63,106 nucleotides of DNA, filler included, from Candidatus Eiseniibacteriota bacterium (GCA_043809585.1; 9 parts of 8 records of this genome joined end to end with filler, not necessarily neighbours in it); one strand, 5' to 3'. Counted from the first letter of the whole stretch, positions 6 through 60,467 are shown. The notes: generated from the sequence alone by a model not told the origin. A program made the numbers and translations.

Positions 6-35
6 AAAAGCCCGGCCGGGGATTCCCGGCCGGGC
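6..35 (-). terminator. Intrinsic terminator after the cohesin-like/CTD gene
   Basis: 11-bp perfect GC stem (10-20/25-35) with a 4-nt loop, followed by TTTTC on the minus strand. Confidence 0.75.
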
Positions 36-74: not shown

Positions 75-842
75 CTACCGAATCAGCGTCATCCGCTTCG
101 ACTCGGAGAACTCCCCCGCCTGAAGACGGTAGAAGTACACCCCCGAGGAGACCGAAGCCCCCCCGTCGTCCCGGCCGTCCCACGTCACCGCGTGGGATCC
201 CGCCGAAAGGGCGCCCGACGAAAGCGTCCGCACCCGCTGACCGCTCACGTTGTAAACCTCCAGGCTCACCGGAACCCGATTCGAAAGATCAAAACGGATC
301 TCCGTCACCGGATTGAACGGGTTCGGCACGTTCCCGAGAAGACGCGTCGTCGTCGGGACCGCCCCCCCCGCCGTCACCGGGTTCTCGTAGGAAACCTGCG
401 TCTCCACCTGCCACGAATCATCCGCCGTCTGGAAAGAGACGATCCGAACCTCCGCATCGCTCTCGTCCACCACGCGGAATCGAATCACCCCGACTTCCCC
501 CTCCGGAGAGCTCACCGCCCCCGTCAGGGTCGCCGTCGTCACGTCCACCACCGAACGGTCCGTCCGGTCGAAAGGACCGAGTACCAGCGGATCCGCGAAG
601 AGGTCCCCCGCCGTGAAGTCCACGAACTCCAGGCCCGCACCATGCTCCACGTCCACGTGAACCGCGTTCACCGCGACGAAGCCCTGTCCCCCCACCCGCA
701 CTTCCAGGTAGGGCGAGTCTTTCGTAAGGGCGCCGTCCATGCCGCCCGCCGTCTTCACATACGGGCTCACTCCCCCATTCACCCCGGCCGACGCCGCGGA
801 GACCAGAAGGAGACTCGTCATCAAGGCCAACAAGATCTTCAT
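75..842 (-). CDS. Secreted protein: signal peptide, cohesin-like beta domain, FlgD-Ig/T9SS-like C-terminal domain
   Basis: Signal peptide MKILLALMTSLLLVSAASA; C-terminus NVPNPFNPVTEIRF..VYNVSGQRVRTL..WDGRDDGG..SSGVYFYRL is the classic FlgD_ig/CTD pattern; middle domain has GLEFV..GDL and GEVGVIRFRV, cohesin-like (tentative); AGGAG RBS. Confidence 0.8.
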   Translation of the reverse strand: MKILLALMTSLLLVSAASAGVNGGVSPYVKTAGGMDGALTKDSPYLEVRVGGQGFVAVNAVHVDVEHGAGLEFVDFTAGDLFADPLVLGPFDRTDRSVVDVTTATLTGAVSSPEGEVGVIRFRVVDESDAEVRIVSFQTADDSWQVETQVSYENPVTAGGAVPTTTRLLGNVPNPFNPVTEIRFDLSNRVPVSLEVYNVSGQRVRTLSSGALSAGSHAVTWDGRDDGGASVSSGVYFYRLQAGEFSESKRMTLIR

Positions 843-864
843 CTCTCTTCTCCTCCTCTCGCCT

Positions 865-3363
865 CTACGGGCACTGGGCGGCGGCGGCCAGGAACGACAG
901 GTATTTCGCCGTGTCGAAGAAGTTCACCACGCCGTCCGCGCTGTTGTTCAGGTTGCCGCAATAACCCGTCCCCGCGTTCAGCGCGGGCAGGAACAGGAAC
1001 GTGTCGAAGAAGTTGACCTCTCCGTCCCCGGTGAAGTCCGGGCTCTTCATCTCCGCCGACGCGCCGCCCGCCAGGGTCACCGACCCCACCGAGCAAGTCA
1101 GGTCGACGGTCCCACAGCCGCCGGCGTTCGTCACCTCGATCACGCACCGTCCGTCGGCGTCCGTCGGGGCATCGCCGCTGAAGACGGCCGTTCCCGACCC
1201 GCTCCCGCAGAAGATGATGTCCTTCCCGAGAGAGGAAACGCCGCTGGCCGTAACCTGGATCGCGGAACCGGGCACGCCGGCCAGCGGGAGTCCCGCGCCG
1301 TCCAGGAGGGTGACGACGATGGTCATGGTCGAGTCGCCGCTCCCGTCGGGCGACAGCACCAGATCGTCGTTCACGGCGATCGAGGAGAGATAGGGATCAC
1401 AGGAGATGGAACTCTCCACGGGAACCGTCGTGATGAAAGGGATCGCGTTGAACGACGTGACCGTGAGCGTCAAGTCCTCTCCCTCGGGCAGCGTCCCGAC
1501 GACGGATATGCTGGCGCTCCCGCCCCCGTCGGTGAACGCCGACCCGAAGTACGCGCCGTTGTACGAGAGCGCACAGAGGGCTCCGGGCACGCCGGCCACG
1601 GAGACCTCGAAGGCCGTCGCGTCCGGCTCGATGTTGTCCGCGTGGGTCACCGCGAGGGAAGACGGCGTGTCGGTCCGCACCCGCACCGACGGATCGCCGA
1701 AGATGATCCACGTTCGGAACATGTTGATCCCGTCGGCGCCGTACTCGTCCATCATCCGGCACGAGCCGTTGAAGGCGAGACCGCCCATGGTCCGCTTCGC
1801 CTCCGCCACGAGGAGGTCGTTCATCTCGTCCTGGCCGCACATGGGGGAGTTCCACGATTGGTTGATCGACGACGCGTACATCGCGATCGCCCCCGTCGGC
1901 GTGGAGCCGTTGGTGGCCCGGAGCCACGCCTCGGCGAAGCAGGCGCCGTAGGAGAAGTCGCCGTTCACGCAGGCCACGCTGAAGATGAACGGGAGCATGT
2001 TGTTGTTGACGAGACTGTTCACGTGGCTGACCGAGAATCCGGTCGAGCTCCAGGCCAGGGTCGAGCCGTGGCCGCAGTAGTTGATGATGCTCCGGCCCTG
2101 GTTCAGTGCCGTCGTCACCTGGGCGGCGGTCCCGTAGGGATCGTAAATACCGTCCACCAGCGTGTAGGTGAACCCGAGCAGGTCGGTCCGGATGTTGCCG
2201 ATGTGGACGTTATCGTACTCCCCGTCGTCTCCGGGACCCTGGTTCGAGGCGATACCGACGCCCCTGTGGTACCAGTCGCCGGCCGGCATCGGATCACGCT
2301 CGTAGGTGACCGTCCGCGCCACCTGGGTCTGCACATGGGAGACCGTGCTCGCCGAGAAGCGCCCGACGAAGATCTCCGGATAGCTGTCGGTTCCCGCCAG
2401 CAGCGCGTAGGACGGGTCCGACTCGCCGCCCGCATAGGTGGGCGTGGCGATCTGGGCCAGGTCGCCCACGAGGAGGACGAAGGCCAGGTCGCGGGTGTTG
2501 TAGAAACCCTGGATGTAGTTCTTGATCGCCGTCGAGTTGTTGCCGATCGTGGAGACGTCCACCATGGTCGTCTTCACGCCCATCTGGTTCTTCCAGTCCA
2601 CCATGGGCTGCATTTCGGCCATGAAGGCGCCGTCGGAGACGATCAGCATCTCCCCCACTTCCCCGACCGGGGCGTAGCGGGTCTCGCTGAAGTTCAGGAA
2701 ATGATCCCGGTAGATCTGGTAGAACTCGGCGTTCATCCGGTCCCGGCGGTTCGCTTCGAGAACGTTGATCTCGCCCGCGCCCGATGTCGTCACCTCCACG
2801 ACCATTTGGGTGTAGATCCGGAGGGTCTGGGTCGCCGGGTTGTACTGGAACGGCTGGGCCACCACGCAGAGGCCCCGGAAATCGCGCAGGATGTAAGGAT
2901 CCCGGGCCCACACGAGATCCCGCGGATACCACTGGTCGCCCGCGTAGAACGGATCGAACGTGTAGGGCACGTCGGCGGGATCGTTGGTCCGGTCGAAGAC
3001 CCCCTTCGAAGGCGCCACCGGCACGCCGTGGATCTCCTCGTACGACGAGGAGACGACGCGGATCTCCATCTTGGCGTCGTCGGGAATGATCACGCTCCGG
3101 GCGACGTGGGGCAAATCGGGCATCCCCGCCTCTTCGATGGGGCTCTCCCCCGGGAGGGTGATCAGATTCCATGGCTCGCCGGCGATGTCCACCGTCGAAC
3201 GTTCGAAGGCGCCGATCTCGAACTCGAGCAGGATCGTCTGTCCGCTCGACTCGAGGACGCGCACCGCGAGTTCCTCTCCGCCGGCACCGACGGTCACCTT
3301 CTCGGCGAACCCGGGCACCGCGACGAGGAGCAACGCGGCCGTGAGTAGCGCTAGCCGTTTCAT
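865..3363 (-). CDS. Gingipain-like cysteine peptidase (C25) with propeptide, Ig domains and a C-terminal dockerin-like module
   Basis: Start at MKRLALL (AGGAGG RBS, signal peptide); C25 motifs FVLLVGD, EIFVGRFS, NYCGHGS (His), SVACVNG (Cys), IFGDPS; tail DFTGDGEVNFFD...NSADGVVNFFD. Confidence 0.92.
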   Translation of the reverse strand: MKRLALLTAALLLVAVPGFAEKVTVGAGGEELAVRVLESSGQTILLEFEIGAFERSTVDIAGEPWNLITLPGESPIEEAGMPDLPHVARSVIIPDDAKMEIRVVSSSYEEIHGVPVAPSKGVFDRTNDPADVPYTFDPFYAGDQWYPRDLVWARDPYILRDFRGLCVVAQPFQYNPATQTLRIYTQMVVEVTTSGAGEINVLEANRRDRMNAEFYQIYRDHFLNFSETRYAPVGEVGEMLIVSDGAFMAEMQPMVDWKNQMGVKTTMVDVSTIGNNSTAIKNYIQGFYNTRDLAFVLLVGDLAQIATPTYAGGESDPSYALLAGTDSYPEIFVGRFSASTVSHVQTQVARTVTYERDPMPAGDWYHRGVGIASNQGPGDDGEYDNVHIGNIRTDLLGFTYTLVDGIYDPYGTAAQVTTALNQGRSIINYCGHGSTLAWSSTGFSVSHVNSLVNNNMLPFIFSVACVNGDFSYGACFAEAWLRATNGSTPTGAIAMYASSINQSWNSPMCGQDEMNDLLVAEAKRTMGGLAFNGSCRMMDEYGADGINMFRTWIIFGDPSVRVRTDTPSSLAVTHADNIEPDATAFEVSVAGVPGALCALSYNGAYFGSAFTDGGGSASISVVGTLPEGEDLTLTVTSFNAIPFITTVPVESSISCDPYLSSIAVNDDLVLSPDGSGDSTMTIVVTLLDGAGLPLAGVPGSAIQVTASGVSSLGKDIIFCGSGSGTAVFSGDAPTDADGRCVIEVTNAGGCGTVDLTCSVGSVTLAGGASAEMKSPDFTGDGEVNFFDTFLFLPALNAGTGYCGNLNNSADGVVNFFDTAKYLSFLAAAAQCP

Positions 3364-3544
3364 AAGAGCCTCCTGCGGCCTTAAGGGGCGGCCGCCGCTG
3401 GAAGAAACGCAGCGATCCATCGAATCGCACCGTACCTGCGAGTGGTTCCGCCTGGCCCTCACCTTATCCGTTCCGCCCGGCGTGAAACCGACTCCATACC
3501 CTCCGGATCTACACCATTTCCGTAATTAAGTTAACTCTGTTCTC

Positions 3545-3575
3545 AGAAGAAGACGGACTCCTCCCGGAGCCCGTC
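3545..3575 (-). terminator. Possible terminator after the upstream CTD paralog
   Basis: Minus-strand hairpin GACGGGCTCC-ggga-GGAGTCCGTC followed by TTCTTCT. Confidence 0.45.
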
Positions 3576-3619
3576 CATCGTCCGTCAGGTCTCTCGTCCG
3601 CTCCAATCGCCCGCCCCCG

Positions 3620-3761
3620 TCAACGAATCAGCGTCATCCGCTTCGACTCGGAGAACTCCCCCGCCTGAAGACGGTAGAAGTACACCCCCGAGGAGACCGA
3701 AGCCCCCCCGTCGTCCCGGCCGTCCCACGTCACCGCGTGGGATCCCGCCGAAAGGGCGCCC
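3620..3761 (-). CDS. 3' end of a second FlgD-Ig/CTD protein, truncated by the contig end
   Basis: 3624-3761 is identical to 79-216 (138 bp) and encodes ...WDGRDDGGASVSSGVYFYRLQAGEFSESKRMTLIR; stop is TGA rather than TAG. Confidence 0.85.
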
Positions 3762-3861
3762 NNNNNNNNNNNNNNNNNNNNNNNNNNNNNNNNNNNNNNN
3801 NNNNNTTAATTAATTAANNNNNNNNNNNNNNNNNNNNNNNNNNNNNNNNNNNNNNNNNNNN
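3762..3861. other. Artificial contig spacer
   Basis: N44-TTAATTAATTAA-N44, stops in all six frames. Confidence 0.99.
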
Positions 3862-4276: not shown

Positions 4277-5059
4277 CTACTCGTACTTCAGCTCCGACCC
4301 GAACATCGAATGAGGAATCAGGAAGATCACGAACGTCACCACCGCCGCTCCGAAGATCCACCACCTCGGGTGTCCCCGCCCCCGCATCTTCAAGAGCGCG
4401 ACCCCCCACGCCAAGAACGCGATCAGCGTCTTGTTGTCCGTCAGGTCCCATCCGTAGGGGACCCCGGTCCAGAGCGCGCCGAACGCGTACTTCTGCACGA
4501 TCGGCCCGAAGATCATTCCCCCGAGCGTGAGGAGCGCCGCCGACCAGAGCGCGTAGACCCGCATCTTCTCGCCGTTCCGGAGCGCCTCCAAACCCGCCCG
4601 GTTCGAGAAGAGCATCCCGGCGAACATGGCCAGGATGTGGGGAAGGAGAACCGCCGCCGGCACCCCCCCCTTGAAGCGGGCGACCGTCGTTCCGTGATTC
4701 GGCAACATCCCCGACTCCGCGCCGTCCCGGATCACCACCTTGTATTCCAGCTTCCCCGCCGGCGGTTGGTGAGGGAGCGCCGCCGTCAGCCGGCCGTCCC
4801 CCTCCCGGGACATGTCGATCGACCGGAACTGCTCGGTCGCCCTGTAACGCCGCCAGAACAGGCGCCCCGTCGCCTCCGGACCCGCCCCGTCCACCACCAC
4901 CGGCAGGTCCCCTTCCCCTTCGTGGGACCGGAGCAGTTCGGCGTGGGCCTGGTACCCGCCGACCCCCGCGGTCGCTTGCTCCGGGTACGTGGGCCCGGTT
5001 GTTCTCTGGTAGTAGGCCGCCCCCACTGTGACGAGGAGCGCGAGGATCCAGTGCAGCAT
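4277..5059 (-). CDS. Conserved hypothetical membrane protein
   Basis: N-terminal TM (AYYQRTTGPTYP), soluble domain, then about four TM helices with QKYAFGALWTGVPYGWDLTDNKTL; start at MLHW (GGAGG RBS). Confidence 0.75.
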   Translation of the reverse strand: MLHWILALLVTVGAAYYQRTTGPTYPEQATAGVGGYQAHAELLRSHEGEGDLPVVVDGAGPEATGRLFWRRYRATEQFRSIDMSREGDGRLTAALPHQPPAGKLEYKVVIRDGAESGMLPNHGTTVARFKGGVPAAVLLPHILAMFAGMLFSNRAGLEALRNGEKMRVYALWSAALLTLGGMIFGPIVQKYAFGALWTGVPYGWDLTDNKTLIAFLAWGVALLKMRGRGHPRWWIFGAAVVTFVIFLIPHSMFGSELKYE

Positions 5060-5236
5060 GGGTTTCCTCCGTCTGAGACGTGCGTGTCCGATCGACCGCA
5101 CGGAGCATACCGGAACCCCGCCCTCCCCACAAGACCGTTCCAAATCACCCTCGACGGATCCGGCCGCTCGACTATACTGTCGGAAACGTCCCGCCCGGCC
5201 GCCGGGCTTCCGAATCAGCCGCCCCCGGGGATCGAA

Positions 5237-6007
5237 ATGAACTCGCCGCGCCGCCCCTCATCGACGACGCTTCTTCCCCTTCTCGCGGCTCTGCTCTGCT
5301 TTCTTCCCGTGCCCACGCCCGCCTCCCCCACGGCGAGGGAGATCCTCGACGCCGTCGACGACCTTTACCGGGGGGAGTCGAGCCGGGGCGTGATGATCAT
5401 GACCATCACCACCGCCCACTGGACCCGGACCCTCTCCATGGATTTCTGGTCGAAGGGAAAGGAACGGAGCTTGATTCGCATCACGAGCCCGAAAAAGGAG
5501 CGGGGGACCGCGACCCTCCGCTCGGACCGGGACATGTGGAACTACCTTCCCAAGGTGAACCGGGTGATCAAGCTCCCGAGTTCCATGCTCTCCTCGTCGT
5601 GGATGGGGAGCCACTTCACCAACGACGACCTGGTGAAGGAGAACCGGATGACCGAGGATTACGACTTCTCCGTCACCGGCGAGGGCGTCCTGGGCGGCGA
5701 TCCCACGGTGGAGCTGACCTGCGTGCCGAAGGAAGACGCCGCGGTGGTCTGGGGGAAGGTGGTGTTCACGATCCGGCAGAAGGACATCATGCCCCTCGCG
5801 GTCCGCTACTTCGACGAGGACATGAGGCTCGCCCGGACCCTCACGTTCTCCGACTACCGGACCGTCGGCGACCGCCTCGTCCCGGTCCGCATGGAAGTGG
5901 AGCCCGTCGACGATCCGGGGGAGAGCACGGTGGTCGTCTACGACGAGATCGAGTTCGACGTGGAGCTCCCGGACGACCTCTTCTCGATTCGAAGCCTCCA
6001 ACGATAG
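5237..6007 (+). CDS. LolA-like outer-membrane lipoprotein-sorting family protein
   Basis: Signal peptide; motifs SPKKERGTATL, MWNYLPKVNRVIK, SWMGSHFTNDDL, DLFSIRSL. Confidence 0.85.
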   Translation: MNSPRRPSSTTLLPLLAALLCFLPVPTPASPTAREILDAVDDLYRGESSRGVMIMTITTAHWTRTLSMDFWSKGKERSLIRITSPKKERGTATLRSDRDMWNYLPKVNRVIKLPSSMLSSSWMGSHFTNDDLVKENRMTEDYDFSVTGEGVLGGDPTVELTCVPKEDAAVVWGKVVFTIRQKDIMPLAVRYFDEDMRLARTLTFSDYRTVGDRLVPVRMEVEPVDDPGESTVVVYDEIEFDVELPDDLFSIRSLQR

Positions 6008-6014
6008 GGCCGCC

Positions 6015-7232
6015 ATGACCCTCCTCCGTCACGCGTGGCTCAATCTCTGGCGGAACCGGAAGAGGACCGGGATCACCCTCGCGGCGATCGCCCTGAACAC
6101 GGCGATTCTCGTCGCCGCCTACTCGCTCATGGACGGCCTCTTCCAGCGGGCCGTGAGCTACGCCACGGACCTGATCGTCGGCGAGGGGCAGGTGCACGCC
6201 CCCGGCTACCGGAAGGACCGGTCCGTCTACAAGTCGATCGAATCGCCCGAGACGGTTCTCGCCCGCGCCGAAAAGGAGGGGATCGGCGCCGTGGCCCGGA
6301 GCTACGTCTACGGGCTCGCGTCGACCGGATCCAAATCGGCGGGCGCCCTCTTCTGGGGCGTCGACCCGGCCCGGGAGCGGCGGGTTTTCGATCTCGCCGG
6401 GCATGTCGATCAGGGGAGCTTCCTGGGGGACAAGGCGACGGGGCGGATCGTCCTCGGCCGCAAGCTCGCCAACTCCCTCCACGCCCGCATCGGATCGGAA
6501 ATCGTGGTGATCCTCCAGGCCGCGGACGGCTCCCTCGGGAACGATCTATACACGGTGGCGGGTATCTTGAAAGCTTCGGGGGAGGGGTTCGACCGGTCCG
6601 CGGCGATCCTCCACATCGACGATCTCCAGGAGATCGCGGTGCTCGGAGGGCGGATCCACGAGATCGCCCTGAACACGCGGGGAAAGCGGACGCCGGGCGA
6701 GATCGGCGAAGCGATCGCCCCCGCCCTCGGCGGCGCCGAGTTCCGGACCTGGCGGGACATCCTTCCCACGCTCTCGGACATGGTGAACCTCTCGGGCGTG
6801 GCCATGTGGATCTTCGGCGCCATCTTCATGCTCGCCGGCGCCCTCGGCGTCATGAACACCATGCTCATGGCGACCTACGAGCGGTTCCGGGAGTTCGGCA
6901 TCCTGAAGGCGATCGGCACGACCCCCGCCCGAATCATGCGGGACGTCGCGGCGGAGGCCTTGGTTCTCGTGCTCGTCTCCACCGCTCTCGGCGCGGCGAT
7001 CGGTCTCGCCGGGGCTTGGTACTTGAAGGTCGTCGGGATCGACACCTCCTCGTGGGGACCGACCCTCTCCGCGGCGGGGGTCGCTTTCGATCCGGTCTGG
7101 CGGGCGGCGATCTCGTTCGGCGGGGTGGCGGGACCGGTCGTGATCATGTGGGTGGTTTGCGTGGCCGCCGCCCTCTACCCCGCGTCGATCGCGGCCCGGC
7201 TCGACCCGGCCGAAGCGATACAGAAGGGATAG
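6015..7232 (+). CDS. ABC transporter permease (FtsX/MacB/LolC-E type)
   Basis: AWLNLWRNRKRT start, periplasmic domain, NTMLMATYERFREFGILKAIG motif, four TM helices. Confidence 0.9.
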   Translation: MTLLRHAWLNLWRNRKRTGITLAAIALNTAILVAAYSLMDGLFQRAVSYATDLIVGEGQVHAPGYRKDRSVYKSIESPETVLARAEKEGIGAVARSYVYGLASTGSKSAGALFWGVDPARERRVFDLAGHVDQGSFLGDKATGRIVLGRKLANSLHARIGSEIVVILQAADGSLGNDLYTVAGILKASGEGFDRSAAILHIDDLQEIAVLGGRIHEIALNTRGKRTPGEIGEAIAPALGGAEFRTWRDILPTLSDMVNLSGVAMWIFGAIFMLAGALGVMNTMLMATYERFREFGILKAIGTTPARIMRDVAAEALVLVLVSTALGAAIGLAGAWYLKVVGIDTSSWGPTLSAAGVAFDPVWRAAISFGGVAGPVVIMWVVCVAAALYPASIAARLDPAEAIQKG

Positions 7233-7235
7233 GGA

Positions 7236-8491
7236 ATGGGCGTTCTCCGAAGCCGCATGATCAAGCGCCTGGCGTGGCGGAGCATCTGGCGGAACCGGCG
7301 GCGAACGATCATCACGATCTCCTCCATCGCCCTCGGGCTCACCTTCGCGATCTTTCTCGTCGCCCTCGGCGAGGGAATCTACGAGCAGATGATCGAAAAC
7401 GCCATACGGATGCAGGCGGGGCACATCGTGCTCGAGAATCCGGAATACCGGGACGCGCCGGCCACGGACCTCTGGATCGCCCCCTCCGAGGAGTTCCGGC
7501 GCCGGATCGAATCGATCGAGGGCGTCGAGTCGGTTCGTTCCGTCATCACCGGTCAGGGATTGGTCCGCTCCGGCTCGGGCGCGGTGGGCGTGCTCCTTTT
7601 CGGGGTCGAGCCGTCGAAGGAGAAGCCGACGTCACCCATGGCGAAGAACCTGGAAGCGGGGGCGTACCTCGCCGAGGGGGACGGAGCGTTCGTCGTGATC
7701 GGCGCGGACCTCGCCGAACAGCTCGACGTGGACGTCGGCAAGAAGCTGGTCCTCTCGGCGAACGACACGGAGGGGAACCTCCGGGAGGAGCTCTGCCGGG
7801 TGAAGGGGATCTTCCGCACCGGCGCGGAGGAGGTGGACGGCTACCTCGTGCAGGCGCCCCTCGGGTTCGCCCGGAACCTGTTCGCCCTCCCCGAGGACGG
7901 GACGACTGAGCTGGCCGTGGTGCTCCGCCGGTCGAAGGACCAGGAGAGGGTCCTCCGGGAGGTCCGGACGATCTTGGGGGGGGGCGGGGGGGGCGGGGGC
8001 GCCGTCGCCCTGCCGTGGCAGGAAGTGCTCGTCGAACTGGCGGCGTACATCCGCATGGACCGCTACTCGAACTGGACATTCCAGGGCCTTCTCGTCGTGA
8101 TCATCCTCTTCACCATCTTCAACACCATCCTCATGTCCGTGCTCGAGCGGAAGCACGAGTTCGCCGTGCTCCTCGCCCTCGGCACGCCGCCGGGCCAGAT
8201 CCGGCGGCAGGTGATGGTCGAGACCGCCTTTCTCGGACTCGTCGGCTGCGGCGCGGGCTTGCTTCTCGGGGGCGTGGTATCGTATGTGTTCCAAGTCCAC
8301 GGGGTCGACATCCGCCTCTTCTATAAGGAGGGGCTCTCCATCTCGGGGCTCGGTATCGCGGACGAGCTCCGGACGAGGGTGACGATCCCGATGCTGCTTT
8401 GGATCGGCGGCATCGTCTACGGGGCGACCTTGCTTCTCGGCCTCCTGCCGATGCGGCACGCGGTCGGCCACTCGATCACGGACACATTGCG

Positions 8492-8495
<4 letters not shown>
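7236..8495 (+). CDS. ABC transporter permease (FtsX/MacB/LolC-E type)
   Basis: LAWRSIWRNRRRT; NTILMSVLERKHEFAVLLALG. Confidence 0.9.
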
Positions 8496-17276: not shown

Positions 17277-17376
17277 NNNNNNNNNNNNNNNNNNNNNNNN
17301 NNNNNNNNNNNNNNNNNNNNTTAATTAATTAANNNNNNNNNNNNNNNNNNNNNNNNNNNNNNNNNNNNNNNNNNNN
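17277..17376. other. Artificial contig spacer
   Basis: N44-TTAATTAATTAA-N44. Confidence 0.99.
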
Positions 17377-27689: not shown

Positions 27690-27789
27690 NNNNNNNNNNN
27701 NNNNNNNNNNNNNNNNNNNNNNNNNNNNNNNNNTTAATTAATTAANNNNNNNNNNNNNNNNNNNNNNNNNNNNNNNNNNNNNNNNNNNN
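27690..27789. other. Artificial contig spacer
   Basis: N44-TTAATTAATTAA-N44. Confidence 0.99.
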
Positions 27790-31146: not shown

Positions 31147-31246
31147 NNNNNNNNNNNNNNNNNNNNNNNNNNNNNNNNNNNNNNNNNNNNTTAATTAATT
31201 AANNNNNNNNNNNNNNNNNNNNNNNNNNNNNNNNNNNNNNNNNNNN
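31147..31246. other. Artificial contig spacer
   Basis: N44-TTAATTAATTAA-N44. Confidence 0.99.
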
Positions 31247-32726: not shown

Positions 32727-33776
32727 ATGAAGTTAAGCGAGATCGCGGAGCGCGTCGGCGGCCATATCGTCGGCGACGGCTCCACAGAGATCACCGGCGT
32801 CGCCGGGATCAAAGAGGCGAAGGTGGGGGACATCACCTTCTTCGCCAATCCCCGCTACGAGACCCATCTCCAGTCGACATCGGCCTCGGCGATCATCCTC
32901 GCGAAGAACGGTCCCCAATCGGTGGAGGGGAAGAACCTCCTCGTCAATCCGAACCCGTACGTCGCCTTCCTCAGGGTGATCGAGCTCTTCGCGCCCCGGG
33001 ACTACGAGAGGACCCAGGGGATCCACCCGACCGCCGTGATCGGCCGGAGCGTGACCCTCGGGTCGTCGATCACGATCGGTCCCCACGTGGTCGTCGAGGA
33101 TGACGCCGTCATCGGTGACGGGTCCCGGATTCTCGCGGGAAGCTACGTCGGATTCCGCGCGAGAATCGGCCGCGACTGCCTCCTCTATCCGAACGCTTCG
33201 GTCCGGGAGGATTCGGAGATCGGCGACCGGGTGATCCTGCACTGCGGGGCGGTGATCGGGAGCGACGGATTCGGGTTCACGAAGAACGGCCCGAGCCACA
33301 TCAAGATTCCCCAGATCGGCCGGGTCGTGATCGAGAACGACGTCGAGATCGGGGCGAACACGACCATCGACCGGGCCACGGTGGGCGTCACGCTGATCAA
33401 GCGGGGGACGAAGGTCGACAATCTGGTTCAAATCGCCCACAACGCGGTGATCGGCGAAAACAGCATCATCGTCGCCCAGGTGGGCGTTTCGGGGAGCACC
33501 GAGATCGGCAACAACGTCACCGTAGCGGGTCAGGCCGGCATCGTGGGGCACATCAAGATCGGCGACAACGTGAGGGTCGGGGCCCAGGCGGGCGTGACCA
33601 AGTCGGTCCCCCCGAACACCGCCGTCTCCGGCTATCCGGCGCGGGAGCACAGTCTTTCCCGGCGAATTTACGCGGGTATCACGAAGATTCCGGACCTGAT
33701 CCGGAAGGTCGCGAGTCTCGAGAGGCGGATGGAGCAAGTGGAGAAGAACCACCTCCGAGACGAGGAAGGCCGATGA
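32727..33776 (+). CDS. lpxD: UDP-3-O-acylglucosamine N-acyltransferase
   Basis: Hexapeptide repeats, GSDGFGF, KIPQIG, TIDRAT, KVDNLVQIAHN. Confidence 0.97.
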   Translation: MKLSEIAERVGGHIVGDGSTEITGVAGIKEAKVGDITFFANPRYETHLQSTSASAIILAKNGPQSVEGKNLLVNPNPYVAFLRVIELFAPRDYERTQGIHPTAVIGRSVTLGSSITIGPHVVVEDDAVIGDGSRILAGSYVGFRARIGRDCLLYPNASVREDSEIGDRVILHCGAVIGSDGFGFTKNGPSHIKIPQIGRVVIENDVEIGANTTIDRATVGVTLIKRGTKVDNLVQIAHNAVIGENSIIVAQVGVSGSTEIGNNVTVAGQAGIVGHIKIGDNVRVGAQAGVTKSVPPNTAVSGYPAREHSLSRRIYAGITKIPDLIRKVASLERRMEQVEKNHLRDEEGR

Positions 33777-35101
33777 GCACGCGGGTGCGGCAGCGGACCA
33801 TCGCCCGCCCGGTCCCGATGTCCGGGGTCGGTCTTCACACGGGGAAGAAGGTCAACATGACTTTCCGTCCCGCGCCGGTCAACACGGGCGTCCGTTTCGT
33901 GCGCACCGATTTCGACAAGCCTGTCGAGATCGTCGCGGACATCACGTATGCCGCCGACATGGTGGGGAGCGTCCGCCGGACGATCCTCGAGAACGGCGAC
34001 GTCAGGATCAACACGGTGGAGCACGTCCTCGCGACGCTCGCCGGTCTCGGCATCGACAACCTCTACATCGACATGGACTCGGAAGAGCCCGCCGAGCCGG
34101 ACGGGAGCGCGCTCCCCTATGTCAAGCTCCTCACCGAGGCGGGCATCGAACCCCAGGACGCGGAGCGTTTCTACCTCCGCATCGACCGGCCCGTGGCGCT
34201 CCAGGAGAACGGCATCGAGCTGATCGCCCTTCCCCACGACGGGCTCCGGATCAGCTTCACCATCCAGTACGACAACCCCCTCATCGGCACCCAGCACGTC
34301 GATCTCGACATCGACGAGGAGTCCTTCGTCAGGGAGATCGCCCCGGCCCGGACCTTCGCGCTCCAGACGGAGGTGGACCGCCTCCGGGAGATGGGGTTGA
34401 TCAAGGGAGGCTCCTACGCGAACGCCATCGTCGTGGAGAAGGAGAAGGTCGCGAGCGAGGAGAGCCTCCGCTTCCACGACGAGTTCGTGCGGCACAAGGT
34501 CCTCGATCTCCTGGGCGATCTCTTCCTCGTGGGGCTCCCGATCAAGGGGCACATCCTCGCCCACAAGGCCGGCCATTCGGCGAACGTGAAGCTCGCCCAT
34601 CTTCTCCGGAGTTACGCGGACGAGAAGCACGGGCCGACCCTCAAACTCCGCCACGAGACCCTCTCCGCGTCGAACGTGGACATCAATTTTATCATGAAGA
34701 TCATGCCCCACCGTTACCCGTTCCTCCTGGTGGACCGGATCATCGAGCTCACGGAGAAGCGGGTGGTGGGCATAAAGAACGTGACGATCAACGAGCCCTT
34801 CTTTATCGGCCATTTTCCGGGTCACCCGATCATGCCCGCGGTGCTCATCATCGAGGCGATGGCCCAGACCGGCGGGATCCTCCTGCTCAGCTCCGTGGAC
34901 AATCCGGAGGGCAAACTCGTCTACTTCATGGGCATCGACGGCGCGAAATTCCGGAAGCCCGTGCTCCCCGGAGACACCCTCCGGTTCGAGCTCGAACTCC
35001 TCCGGCTCAAGACGCGGACGTGCAAGATGAGGGGACGGGCCTACGTGGGCGACGACCTCGTCGCCGGGGCGGATCTTCTCTCCATGATCGTCGACCGATA
35101 G
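33773..35101 (+). CDS. lpxC/fabZ: Bifunctional LpxC deacetylase / FabZ dehydratase
   Basis: QRTI..GVGLHTG, TVEHVL, EIAPARTF, RHKVLDLLGD, then PHRYPFLLVDR, GHFPGHPIMPAVLIIEAMAQ. Confidence 0.96.
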   Translation: MSTRVRQRTIARPVPMSGVGLHTGKKVNMTFRPAPVNTGVRFVRTDFDKPVEIVADITYAADMVGSVRRTILENGDVRINTVEHVLATLAGLGIDNLYIDMDSEEPAEPDGSALPYVKLLTEAGIEPQDAERFYLRIDRPVALQENGIELIALPHDGLRISFTIQYDNPLIGTQHVDLDIDEESFVREIAPARTFALQTEVDRLREMGLIKGGSYANAIVVEKEKVASEESLRFHDEFVRHKVLDLLGDLFLVGLPIKGHILAHKAGHSANVKLAHLLRSYADEKHGPTLKLRHETLSASNVDINFIMKIMPHRYPFLLVDRIIELTEKRVVGIKNVTINEPFFIGHFPGHPIMPAVLIIEAMAQTGGILLLSSVDNPEGKLVYFMGIDGAKFRKPVLPGDTLRFELELLRLKTRTCKMRGRAYVGDDLVAGADLLSMIVDR

Positions 35102-35173: not shown

Positions 35174-35273
35174 NNNNNNNNNNNNNNNNNNNNNNNNNNN
35201 NNNNNNNNNNNNNNNNNTTAATTAATTAANNNNNNNNNNNNNNNNNNNNNNNNNNNNNNNNNNNNNNNNNNNN
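35174..35273. other. Artificial contig spacer
   Basis: N44-TTAATTAATTAA-N44. Confidence 0.99.
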
Positions 35274-38746: not shown

Positions 38747-38846
38747 NNNNNNNNNNNNNNNNNNNNNNNNNNNNNNNNNNNNNNNNNNNNTTAATTAATT
38801 AANNNNNNNNNNNNNNNNNNNNNNNNNNNNNNNNNNNNNNNNNNNN
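38747..38846. other. Artificial contig spacer
   Basis: N44-TTAATTAATTAA-N44. Confidence 0.99.
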
Positions 38847-55994: not shown

Positions 55995-56094
55995 NNNNNN
56001 NNNNNNNNNNNNNNNNNNNNNNNNNNNNNNNNNNNNNNTTAATTAATTAANNNNNNNNNNNNNNNNNNNNNNNNNNNNNNNNNNNNNNNNNNNN
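55995..56094. other. Artificial contig spacer
   Basis: N44-TTAATTAATTAA-N44. Confidence 0.99.
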
Positions 56095-57442: not shown

Positions 57443-60367
57443 ATGGGAATGGCTTTGAGATCGCGACCTTTCGTCGCTCTCTCGGCGGCCCTTTGGCTGA
57501 TGGCCGGTTCGGCGGCGGCCTTCGTGCCCACGCCGGATCACGACACCTATGAAATCTTCCTGGCTGGTGAGCGGACCGCGATGGAGTGGCGCACCGTTTC
57601 CCTGGCGGAGGCGAAGGCGTTTTCCGGCGCCCCGGATTTCGCCGCCCGTTACGGCGGATCTTGGCGGGTGCAGTGGAACGACGCCACCGCCACGGCCCAC
57701 CAGCTCTTCGGGAGCGGTACCTCGGTGACGAGCGCTCCGGTGACGACCGCCGGAGAGGCGGAGCGGATCGCCCGCCGGTTTCTCGGGGCGAATCCGGGCC
57801 TTTTCGGAACCGTCGACGCCGGTCTCGAAACGCGAACTTCGACACGGGCGGCGGGGAAGTGGTCGATCGTCTTCGGCCAGACCCGTGAGGGTATTCCGGT
57901 GCGGGGGGGACGGGCCCATGTCGTCATGACCGAAGAGGGCCGCCTCTTCGGGGCCGGCTCCGACCTCCATTCGGACATCTCCGTCTCCACGGTCCCCTCG
58001 ATCACCGGGGAGGAGGCGACGGCGATCGCCGCTTCCGATCTCGGCTTCAACGACGCCACGGACGCCGCCCAGGGCGCGGCCCTCGAGATCCTTCCGGTCG
58101 TGGAGGGCGCGGCGGCCACGTACCGGCTCGTCTACAACGTGCAGCTCCGGATGGAGAATCCCCTCGGTCTCTGGGAGACCCTGGTGGACGCCTCCTCGGG
58201 CGAGATCGTCCGGCGGGTGAACTTGATCCGTTTCTTCGACGTGAACGGCAACGTGGACGCCGACCTCTACGATCCCCACTACTGCGGGAATCCCCTGGTC
58301 CTCCGGGAGATGCCGAACCATTACGTCACCCTCTCGGGGGTCGGCACCGCGACGACCGGCGACGACGGGAACTTCACCGCCACCGGCGCGTCGGGGACCG
58401 TTTCGTGGTCCGCCCTGCTCCAGGGGATCTGGGCGAACGTGCAGAACTACTCCGGCGCCGAGGCGTACGAGTCGGGAAGCGTGACGGAGGGGCAGTTCCT
58501 GCAGGTCCATTGGGACAACACGAACTCCCGGGCGGACGAGCGCACCTGCTACTACCACCAGAGCGTCGTTCACGACTACATTAGGGACGTCGATTCCGGT
58601 CCGGGGCTCGCCGACATCGACTACCAGATGCTCGTCACCGTGGCGCGGACCGACGGCTACTGCCCCGGCAACGCCTGGTACGACTACTCGGGCATCAACT
58701 TCTGCGTGGGCAACGCGAGCTACGGGAACACGGGCGAGATGGCCGACGTGATCTACCACGAGTTCGGCCACGGAATCACGCACCGGATCTACAACGTCAC
58801 CGGAAATCCCCCCGGCGACCTCCACGAGGGGAACTCGGATGTCATAGCGAACCTGCTCACCGGCGAGTCGATCATCGGCCTCGGGTTCTACCTGAACAAC
58901 TGCACGTCGGGCATCCGGAACTCGGACAACAATCTGCAGTATCCGGCCGACTGGACGGGCCAGAACCACTACAGCGGGCAGATCATCGCCGGCGTCGTGT
59001 GGGACGCGTGGCAGGAGCTGAAGATCAGCCTCGGCGACGCGGCCGCCCTGGACCAGATCGGCAATGTCTGGCACTACGGACGGTCGCTCATGCTGCCGGA
59101 GACGCAGCCGGACCAGGTGCTCTCCATGCTGATCGCCGACGACGACGACGGCAACCTCGTGAACGGAACCCCCCACTACGCCGAGATCTGCCAGGGGGCC
59201 GCGAACCACGGCTTCGACTGCGCGGGCCTGATCGGGACGTCCCCGGAGATCGCCTACTCGCCGGTCTCCTTCGACGAGACCCTGAGCGCGGGCAGCCAGA
59301 CCACGGCCGGGCTCTACATCGAGAACATCGGAACCGGCGTTCTCACCTACTCGCTGGCCGGCGTGCAGACCACCCTCGCCAAGGCGACGGCCGCGACCGA
59401 CGCCGCCCGGGGGGCCGGGAGCCGGGAGATGTCCACGGACAACTCCCGCACCCTCGAGTTCCTCCGCAGGAGCGCGTCCGCGGGCAAGACCGCGGCGGTG
59501 ATCTTCTCCGACGACATGGAAGGGGGCGTGAACGGCTGGACCACGACGGTCCACGACGGAACGTCCTCGGACCTCTGGCATCAGGTCACCACGAACGCCA
59601 ACTCGCCGACCCACTCGTGGTGGTGCGGGCTGGACGGGAGCGGTACCTACGACACGGGCGCCCGGATCTCGAACGCCCTCGTCTCGCCGAGCATCGATCT
59701 CTCGAGCGGCACCCCCCCCCTCACGCTCGAATTCTACGAGAACTACACCACCGAGTCGGGATGGGACTTCTGCAACGTGGACATTTCCACCAACGGCGGG
59801 GGGACCTGGACGAACCTCCGGACCGCGTCCGGATCGAGCGGCGGGTGGACCCTGTCGTCCGTCGATCTCTCCGCCTATGCGGGGGGGACGGTCAATATCC
59901 GGTTCCACTTCGACACGACCGACGGCCTCTACAACAGCTATCCCGGCTGGTTCGTCGACGACGTGTCGGTGAACGCCACCGGCGTTTCCTGGCTCGTCTT
60001 CGCCCCGATGAACGGCGCGGTGCCGGCGGGAGAGACGGACACGGTGGAGGTCACGTTCGACGCCGGAGCCCTCGCGCCCGGCGACTACGAGGCGAACATC
60101 CGGATCACCTCGAACGACCAGTCGAACCCGACCGAGATCGTTCCGGTCGCGCTTCATGTCGGGGGCGGGATCGATCCGTTCTACTCGACGATCGCCGTGA
60201 ACGACGATCTGATGCTGTCGCCGGATGGCGGCGGCGATTCGACGATGACCATCGTCGTCACCGTCAAGGACGGGAACGACGACCCGATCGTGGGCGTGCC
60301 CGCCGGGGACGTGGCCGTCACGCTGAGCGGCACCTCGTACATCGGGGCGAGCGTCCGGTTCTGCCAG
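57443..60367 (+). CDS. Secreted M4/M36 (thermolysin/fungalysin-like) zinc metallopeptidase, multidomain, truncated by the contig end
   Basis: Signal peptide; FTP/PepSY-like propeptide (LVDASSGEIV); NAWY, YHEFGHG, LHEGNSD; MAM/InhA-like domain (FSDDMEGG..GWFVDDV); last ~65 aa match the gingipain C-terminal module. Confidence 0.9.
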
Positions 60368-60467
60368 NNNNNNNNNNNNNNNNNNNNNNNNNNNNNNNNN
60401 NNNNNNNNNNNTTAATTAATTAANNNNNNNNNNNNNNNNNNNNNNNNNNNNNNNNNNNNNNNNNNNN
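60368..60467. other. Artificial contig spacer
   Basis: N44-TTAATTAATTAA-N44. Confidence 0.99.

Follow-up and report, generated by a model that had tools for sequence, protein, structure and literature searches.

Within a 63,106-nucleotide stretch of DNA from a Candidatus Eiseniibacteriota bacterium, referred to here as the window, lies a pair of adjacent genes, one encoding a secreted C25 (gingipain R-like) cysteine peptidase and the other a small protein with one cohesin domain followed by a C-terminal domain (CTD) of the kind that a type IX secretion system (T9SS) recognises. The peptidase has no such CTD of its own, and ends in an Ig-like domain and what we conclude to be a divergent dockerin. 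We think it probable that the two products make up a two-part surface-display unit, with the dockerin-tailed protease held on a one-cohesin T9SS anchor.

A peptidase gene and an anchor gene in tandem

The 63-kb window consists of about nine contigs joined end to end. The joints are marked by sixteen runs of 44 N that occur in pairs (3762-3861, 17277-17376, 27690-27789, 31147-31246, 35174-35273, 38747-38846, 55995-56094 and 60368-60467), and arguments from gene neighbourhood are therefore valid only inside a single contig. Complete genes on the contig at 1-3761 number two and have the same, minus-strand orientation, the C25 peptidase gene (865..3363) being followed by the anchor gene (75..842); position 3761 is no more than the point where the contig stops. 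The 22 bp between the genes (843..864, minus strand) include a Shine-Dalgarno-like GGAGGAG, and a terminator scan gave no terminator-like sites between them, from which we conclude that the two are probably co-transcribed. An earlier note on this DNA had placed the second gene 22 bp from the first and before a shared terminator, and a terminator-like hairpin is indeed present only 3′ of the anchor gene (10..35, minus strand), with 11 G-C pairs followed by TTTTCTGTC; the call is a consensus match only, 3 such sites having been found where 1.7 are expected.

A scan of the contig for sigma-70 promoters gave 0 sites. We note a small hairpin with a T-rich run at 3412-3428 (minus strand), just 5′ of the peptidase start codon and inside a 256-bp intergenic region in which the G+C content falls to ~0.56; this is a possible candidate for a regulatory element.

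The C25 peptidase

The longest open reading frame (ORF) of the peptidase spans 865..3462 (minus strand) and encodes 865 aa from a GTG at 3462, but the true start is likely to be the ATG at 3363, which yields a product of 832 aa. We prefer this start because it agrees with the public gene call (P0034, 832 aa) and because a GGAGG sequence lies just upstream of it; the N-terminus then reads MKRLALLTAALLLVAVPGFA, a typical signal peptide. In the numbering of the 865-aa ORF, and all on the minus strand, the protein comprises a Propeptide_C25 domain at residues 66-231 (2770..3267; PF08126, E 2.8e-31), a Peptidase_C25 catalytic domain at residues 272-595 (1678..2649; PF01364, E 7e-57, covering profile positions 1-374 of 374) and a Peptidase_C25_C Ig-like domain at residues 600-680 (1423..1665; PF03785, E 6.7e-11).

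The mature domain of gingipain R2, or RgpB (4ief_B), aligns to the peptidase with an E value of 2.7e-93, and the pro-domain with an E value of 1.4e-30. The alignment to 4ief_B shows that the GHGS and VACVNG stretches are retained, which we take to be the sites of the catalytic His and Cys residues. With its full-length catalytic domain and its pro-domain the protein is, by sequence, a member of peptidase family C25. Neither FlgD_ig nor Por_Secre_tail is matched in it by Pfam, which agrees with the earlier note's claim that this enzyme has no FlgD/T9SS-like CTD of its own.

An Ig-like domain and a probable divergent dockerin

The last 176 residues of the peptidase, which we refer to as the tail, are Ig-like in their first half and dockerin-like in their second. 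An AlphaFold2 (AF2) model built from 14 tails has a predicted local distance difference test score (pLDDT) of 90.1 and a predicted template modelling score (pTM) of 0.82, and has an Ig-like part at residues 1-117 followed by a loop-helix, a linker and a second loop-helix. The Ig-like part (1045..1395, minus strand) is the second Ig-like domain of the protein; its strands lie at tail residues 5-117 of the model, it contains two invariant Cys residues, and its resemblance to Big_1 is weak in Pfam (E 0.002); it is kept in all 14 tails. The dockerin-like module (868..1044, minus strand) contains two repeats of a Ca loop and a helix; the linker holds an invariant Cys, and the module ends in Cys-Pro.

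Dockerins are built of duplicated segments of ~22 residues, each a loop followed by a helix, and the loop consensus has D or N at positions 1, 3, 5 and 9 and D at position 12. A regular expression for this loop matches the tail twice, at DFTGDGEVNFFD (1003-1038, minus strand) and NNSADGVVNFFD (913-948, minus strand), and nothing else in the 63-kb window, read in its six frames, is matched by it. They are spaced by 30 residues, and in the AF2 model each is followed by a helix, at residues 129-141 and 159-170 respectively. This is the Ig-like ending with a duplicated Ca-loop-helix motif that the earlier note had described. Four Cys residues of the tail are invariant, of which two lie in the Ig domain, a third in the linker and the last in the Cys-Pro terminus; they fit an extracytoplasmic protein, in which they may form disulfides.

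Relationships to recognised dockerins emerge from profile and embedding searches. Among the ESM Atlas neighbours of the last 66 residues, 25 of the 30 that are named belong to Dockerin_1 clusters, the top score being 0.95 with 172 of 256 features shared, and the closest single-sequence matches in the PDB are two dockerin-bearing chains of Ruminococcus, which are weak (E ~0.23). A profile of the 14 tails, run exhaustively with HMMER against 1.84 billion representatives, matched 538 proteins at E ≤ 1e-3, 95 at E ≤ 1e-10 and 14 at E ≤ 1e-30. A Pfam scan (E ≤ 1e-4) of the 148 newly listed matches found Dockerin_1 in nine of them, including P0128, P0146, P0159, P0147 and P0182; part of the 148 match through the Ig part only (invasin-like multi-Ig proteins) and are uninformative on the dockerin. 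P0128 has repeated dockerins, of which six stretches are matched at profile positions 117-176, the dockerin part (E 1.1e-11), and P0146 and P0159 are also repeated-dockerin proteins matched on that part, while P0147 and P0182 are small Ig-plus-dockerin proteins to which the tail profile aligns end to end. The curated model NF041540 ('GC-type dockerin') matches the window protein and eight of 17 close relatives over nearly the whole profile (from position 4 to 62-66 of 67), with scores, 13.3-18.3 bits in the relatives, that all fall below its cut-off of 29.

On this indirect homology, there being no Pfam match, we take the end of the tail to be, in all probability, a divergent dockerin. The earlier note's identification of a dockerin tail therefore stands as to the loop-helix repeats and the Dockerin_1 relatives that are reached through the profile, but not as to a direct match to PF00404.

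The tail profile also reaches proteins of other architectures. Many small ones of ~200-245 aa (for example P0061, P0064, P0068, P0071, P0075, P0079, P0080 and P0112) match it from about residue 45 to near the C-terminus, leaving room for little beyond a leader, the Ig domain and the dockerin, and have no enzyme head. Four others (P0128, P0088, P0146 and P0159) contain five to eight tandem dockerin repeats, and P0128 has a Por_Secre_tail as well; this protein would, from its domain content, be a 'reverse scaffoldin' that presents dockerins instead of cohesins.

The anchor protein: one cohesin and a type IX sorting domain

The anchor gene (75..842, minus strand) encodes a protein of 255 aa with a signal-peptide-like N-terminus, a single cohesin domain at about residues 25-155 (378..770, minus strand) and a FlgD-Ig/T9SS type A C-terminal sorting domain at about residues 165-255 (78..350, minus strand). 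The CTD scores 52.5 bits against PF13860 (FlgD_ig; cut-off 27) and 36.9 bits against TIGR04183 (cut-off 23), and its score of 23.2 bits against PF18962 (Por_Secre_tail) lies under the cut-off of 27. The arrangement of signal peptide, beta domain and FlgD-Ig/CTD is thus as first noted.

A word-indexed search with anchor residues 22-168 yielded 33 orthologous proteins of 198-261 aa, 46-87% identical to the anchor, those with names being labelled Candidatus Eisenbacteria. Most of the full-length orthologues open with a signal-peptide-like stretch, as judged by eye from the alignment. Scanned singly, 27 of the 33 match PF00963 (Cohesin) at E ≤ 0.01, the best at 5e-9, and it is through these orthologues that the domain in the window is assigned, since the window copy alone does not match PF00963. 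The AF2 model of the middle domain, built on the 33-row alignment, has a mean pLDDT of 87.5, with values above 90 over most of the cohesin. Its top Foldseek match is 2w1n, the cohesin-FN3 of Clostridium perfringens GH84C (E 1e-7), and the single-domain matches in the PDB are cohesins: 2xdh (TM score 0.64), the type I cohesin 2ccl_A (0.66), 5nrk_A (0.62) and the type II cohesin 2b59_A (0.60), all normalised on the target. A PDB profile search with the anchor family returned FlgD matches and one weak cohesin, 5g5d_A (E 0.015). From its orthologues and its predicted fold, the middle domain is a cohesin, in line with the cohesin-like motifs that the earlier note had seen there.

A predicted complex between tail and cohesin

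The complex was modelled with two Ca ions from cohesin residues 22-168 (an alignment of 33 rows) and the tail of 176 aa (an alignment of 14 rows). The predicted complex has a median ipSAE (an interface score derived from predicted aligned errors) of 0.81, from runs of 0.68, 0.82 and 0.81, compared with 0.02 for the best of three controls, a score that likeness to solved complexes may drive; the pLDDT of both partners is at least 94 and contact agreement among runs is 100%. In none of the refuting checks named in the earlier note, this one on the interface included, did the outcome go against it. In the model the tail and the middle domain resemble a cohesin-dockerin pair; this is likeness rather than proof of binding, and the two would presumably bind in a Ca-dependent manner.

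Both dockerin helices take part in the modelled interface, through tail residues 132, 136, 139-140, 159-160, 162-164, 166-167 and 169-170, and the cohesin contributes residues 59-62, 86-91, 102-108 and 136-146, which lie on its conserved face. Conservation of the cohesin interface is 0.84, compared with 0.70 in the rest of the domain (one-sided Mann-Whitney p 0.006). The idea that the Ig domain acts as an X-module touching the cohesin was rejected, no Ig residue being present in the predicted interface.

Ten tail-cohesin pairs were also compared for co-variation at the interface, and show about three clade-level co-changes, such as cohesin T102Q and Q138E accompanying dockerin F160Q and P167Q; the comparison is anecdotal, carries no test, and includes four pairs whose pairing is itself only deduced, from contigs of equal length. 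Pairs from the same metagenome-assembled genome (MAG) differ from one another at predicted interface positions on both partners (locus L001 and L003 in one MAG, L002 and L004 in another), a hint of pair-specific, private recognition within one genome.

Recurrence, natural fusions and a second pair

A scan of species-representative genomes identified five related loci in three MAGs, two of Eisenbacteria and one labelled Gemmatimonadetes, with two pairs in each of two of the three. At all five the gene upstream of the cohesin-CTD gene carries the same C-terminal tail, making six of six when the window is included, and the gap between the two genes ranges from 9 to ~30 bp. The survey of related genomes that the earlier note had called for has found the same gene order at each of these loci. 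Of the heads of the five upstream proteins, three are M36-like/InhA-MAM and two are without a family. The tail recurs C-terminally in 12 other proteins of 540-1172 aa, with 43-61% identity; five of these have C25 heads, one an S8 subtilase head and at least three M36/InhA-MAM-like heads, the rest having no assignment. All of the assignable heads are peptidases.

The two parts also occur fused. A cohesin hidden Markov model built from the anchor family was searched against the set of 162 proteins that the tail had gathered (P0034-P0195) and identified P0058 (E 1e-23) and P0056 (E 4.8e-18), in which an Ig-dockerin, a linker, a cohesin and a FlgD_ig CTD follow one another in a single chain; P0105 is a weak third case. 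P0058 also matches PF00963 itself (E 9.7e-9; 36 bits, cut-off 24.1). The linkers of P0056 and P0058 contain no signal peptide, and we regard these proteins as real fusions rather than products of read-through. The domain identities, the gene order with its conservation and the natural fusions are thus all observed in these sequences.

The bin from which the window derives probably holds at least two pairs of a tail-bearing protease and a cohesin-CTD protein, judging from two partial genes. One encodes an M36-like metallopeptidase with the tail (57443..60367, plus strand) and lies on another contig, whose end interrupts it inside the Ig domain of the tail. Its head consists of an FTP/PepSY-like propeptide, an HEFGH motif, an InhA-like MAM and an Ig domain, and the truncated tail that follows shares 60% identity with tail residues 1-63 and 81% nucleotide identity over 132 nt. 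The other is the 3′ end of a further FlgD-Ig CTD gene (3620..3761, minus strand; 46 codons and a TGA stop), upstream of the C25 peptidase. Here 3624-3761 is a perfect 138-nt direct repeat of 79-216, so that the repeat occurs at both ends of the contig. An origin of the repeat as an artefact of circular or tandem assembly was considered and rejected, because the copies diverge immediately after it and their stop codons differ; together with a different last Arg codon, this identifies 3620..3761 as a paralogue in its own right. This repeat is probably where the contig broke, the upstream CTD copy probably marking a second cohesin-CTD paralogue, and the M36-like gene may lie directly upstream of the CTD gene that ends at 3620. 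Motif and tblastn searches for further pairs in the rest of the window gave only the M36-like gene and the partial CTD copy.

A proposed display unit and its alternatives

In the surface-display unit that we propose, the C25 peptidase would be exported by Sec, carrying an Ig-like domain and a divergent dockerin where gingipains carry their CTD. The anchor would also leave the cytoplasm by Sec, its FlgD-Ig/type A CTD would be recognised by the T9SS, and it would be fixed at the cell surface, presenting its single cohesin. Through its pair of dockerin helices, to whose stability Ca presumably contributes, the protease would dock on the conserved face of the cohesin's beta-sandwich and so be held non-covalently on a monovalent anchor, a counterpart of the covalent CTD attachment of gingipains. 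The S8 and M36-like proteases of the lineage would be arranged in the same way, each with its own downstream cohesin-CTD gene. That the anchor leaves through the T9SS and becomes attached to the surface, and that the two parts meet there, are conjectural steps in this scheme, as are the binding and its Ca dependence.

A number of observations weigh against this proposal. There are no T9SS components among the 41 ORFs scanned with Pfam on the other contigs of the window, which holds only ~63 kb of the bin, and the scheme gives a CTD-less protease no route across the outer membrane. The window copy of the anchor's middle domain has no Pfam match either as part of the full protein or as an isolated segment of 121 aa, even at E 10. 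Pfam Dockerin_1 (E ≤ 0.001) is matched neither by the window tail nor by 17 close relatives, an isolated 80-aa segment of the tail matches no Pfam family at E 10, and the window protein scores only 15.5 bits against NF041540, below the cut-off of 29. A PDB profile search with six tails gave only insignificant armadillo-repeat and calmodulin (EF-hand) matches, and Foldseek of the Ig-plus-dockerin model found Ig-like folds only, none at E ≤ 0.001 and no dockerin among them. Of the 148 scanned tail-profile matches, 31 have a FlgD_ig CTD of their own, including the C25 peptidases P0089 and P0116, and with both present in one chain the Ig-dockerin unit is not simply a substitute for the CTD. As for the predicted complex, 116 of 157 solved complexes attain the ipSAE mark, as do 2 of 215 mismatched pairs, counts that are only rough here because the calibration lacked user-supplied alignments and ligands, and since many cohesin-dockerin complexes have been solved the score may reflect likeness or memory. 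Conservation of the dockerin interface is not significantly above that of the rest (0.76 vs 0.70, p 0.27).

The passage across the outer membrane would be accounted for if the cohesin-CTD protein were a detachable secretion tag, which, while still in the periplasm, binds the dockerin of the protease once this has folded and takes it as a heterodimer through the T9SS translocon on the one CTD. We regard this as unlikely, and take the same view of its fuller form, a secretion in trans with one dedicated escort per enzyme, after which the pair either stays on the surface or is released. In its favour, the protease has a Sec signal and no outer-membrane export signal, and LpxC, LpxD and OmpH are encoded on other contigs of the window, from which we conclude that the organism is diderm; the strict 1:1 operonic pairing at six of six loci fits a stoichiometric escort better than a shared scaffold, and the natural fusions place the enzyme-dockerin-cohesin chain directly on a CTD. 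The T9SS carries folded proteins, according to the available part of one report (PMC9251779). Against it, the protease could leave by type II secretion or some other pathway, the literature found by a limited search, as far as its accessible text goes, does not describe T9SS piggy-backing, and sequence cannot tell assembly in the periplasm from assembly at the surface.

A more conservative view would be that the tail is a Ca-binding stabilising or ligand module that does not bind its neighbour, and that the cohesin-like CTD protein is an adhesin, a substrate-binding protein, an inhibitor or a maturation factor. The want of a direct Pfam dockerin match and the many proteins that combine an Ig-dockerin unit with their own CTD both point this way, as does the occurrence of Dx[DN]xDG loops in many unrelated Ca-binding contexts (PMC3123361, in the part available). 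We nonetheless consider it quite improbable, because the predicted complex passes with its controls, the cohesin residues at its interface are the most conserved ones, dockerin-cohesin fusions exist, and the pairing holds over three kinds of protease head. That a single protease-Ig-dockerin-cohesin-CTD gene was split by a local lesion, or by an error of assembly, which the earlier note had itself raised as an objection in the case of the lesion, is scarcely credible. The fused representatives P0056 and P0058 and a short contig ending in a repeat could be read in this way, but lacking an internal signal peptide the two proteins are true fusions, whereas the anchor has its own signal-peptide-like N-terminus and ribosome-binding site, stand-alone homologues of ~250 aa number 33, and the split recurs at five of five loci in three other genomes. 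We therefore favour the two-part display unit.

Other genes in the window

By Pfam, the 41 ORFs on the other contigs are housekeeping and envelope genes, with no part of a T9SS among them. One ORF (33773-35101, plus strand) is an LpxC-FabZ fusion, with a match to LpxC (E 9.6e-94) and another to a FabA/FabZ-like dehydratase domain, and adjoins LpxD and OmpH; the presence of these genes side by side indicates that the organism makes lipid A. A further ORF of 565 aa (4310-6007, plus strand) has a LolA-like domain only at residues 383-565, and from the position of this domain and the overlap with long ORFs on the opposite strand its real start probably lies a good deal further in. Two genes for MacB/FtsX-type permeases (6015-8495) come after it.

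Relation to known systems

If the binding is real, this would be, for a diderm bacterium, the smallest cohesin-dockerin display unit that occurs in nature, and would show how an abundant uncultured phylum of soil and sediment arms its surface with gingipain-, subtilisin- and fungalysin-like proteases. It also raises the question of whether CTD-less cargo can be exported or anchored in trans by type IX secretion. The pairs, compact and perhaps orthogonal, would be of use as surface-display parts in hosts that have a T9SS, and the natural fused and split forms offer a ready-made comparison.

In the clostridial cellulosome the enzymes end in a dockerin, a duplicated Ca-loop/helix module that binds a flat face of the cohesin, and an anchoring protein couples a cohesin to a surface module. 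The pair described here resembles the clostridial type I and type II pairs (2ccl, 2b59, 5nrk) in that both dockerin helices contact the cohesin in the model. Clostridial cellulosomes differ in belonging to monoderm bacteria, in their S-layer homology (SLH) or sortase anchors, in their glycoside hydrolase cargo and in their multivalent scaffoldins, and unlike clostridial dockerins the tail fails Dockerin_1; its loop positions 10-11 are Phe-Phe, four of its Cys residues are invariant, and it ends in Cys-Pro. A cellulosome proper was considered and rejected, there being one cohesin per protein, no carbohydrate-binding module (CBM) and peptidase heads, and our search having returned no longer homologues of the cohesin domain (448-2000 aa), which is itself weak evidence. 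Judged by its domains, the pair would work like a cellulosome anchor, yet is no cellulosome.

RgpB of Porphyromonas gingivalis (4ief, 1cvr) carries its own T9SS CTD. The peptidase can be aligned with it over the full length of the pro-domain, the C25 catalytic domain and the Ig-like domain; here, by contrast, the CTD is on a separate protein and the enzyme ends in Ig and dockerin. The best structural matches of the cohesin, 2xdh from Archaeoglobus fulgidus and 2w1n from C. perfringens GH84C, are non-cellulosomal cohesins used outside cellulose degradation; they have other partners and other anchoring, and no T9SS CTD. The proteins gathered by curators under NF041540, the 'GC-type dockerin domain-anchored protein', share a C-terminal dockerin-like domain of ~67 aa and a name that implies anchoring, and differ in that the tails all score under the curated cut-off. 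'GC-type dockerin' as a term was not found in the literature searched, nor was any publication that treats Eisenbacteria together with dockerins or the T9SS.

The earlier note was not aware of such a split arrangement having been described for such lineages, and this claim of novelty was too strong, since the concept has already been proposed for other uncultured bacteria, in Cloacimonadota (PMC8542988) and in Planctomycetes (PMC6461901). The available text of Williams et al. (2021) on Candidatus Stygibacter (Cloacimonadota) describes dockerin-tailed enzymes, including S8 and gingipain-like C25 peptidases, that dock on a CTD-bearing scaffoldin (PMC8542988). The likeness extends, as far as that text goes, to signal-peptide enzymes with C-terminal dockerins, to a non-catalytic cohesin protein whose T9SS-type CTD serves its own surface location, and to a diderm lineage of the Fibrobacterota-Chlorobiota-Bacteroidota (FCB) group known from MAGs only (PMC8542988). 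The Stygibacter scaffoldin is described there as a protein of 3,755 aa with tandem cohesins and CBM2/CBM3 modules that serves many enzymes, glycoside hydrolases included (PMC8542988), whereas the anchor in the window has 255 aa, a single cohesin and no CBM, the anchor gene lies directly downstream of each enzyme, the assignable heads are all proteases, and a fixed Ig-like domain precedes the dockerin. The 'planctosome' of the Planctomycetes (Nemodlikiaceae; Andrei et al. 2019) is similar in being a cohesin-dockerin assembly of peptidases at the outer membrane directed at polypeptides, and differs, in the part of the report available, in its lamin-tail-domain anchor with an adaptor, in its M12B and M14 peptidases, and in having neither a T9SS CTD nor 1:1 pairing (PMC6461901). 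What is new in the Eisenbacteria is the lineage itself and the minimal one-cohesin anchor encoded 1:1 beside each protease; also different are the fixed Ig-dockerin unit ending in Cys-Pro, the protease-only cargo and the natural fused forms.

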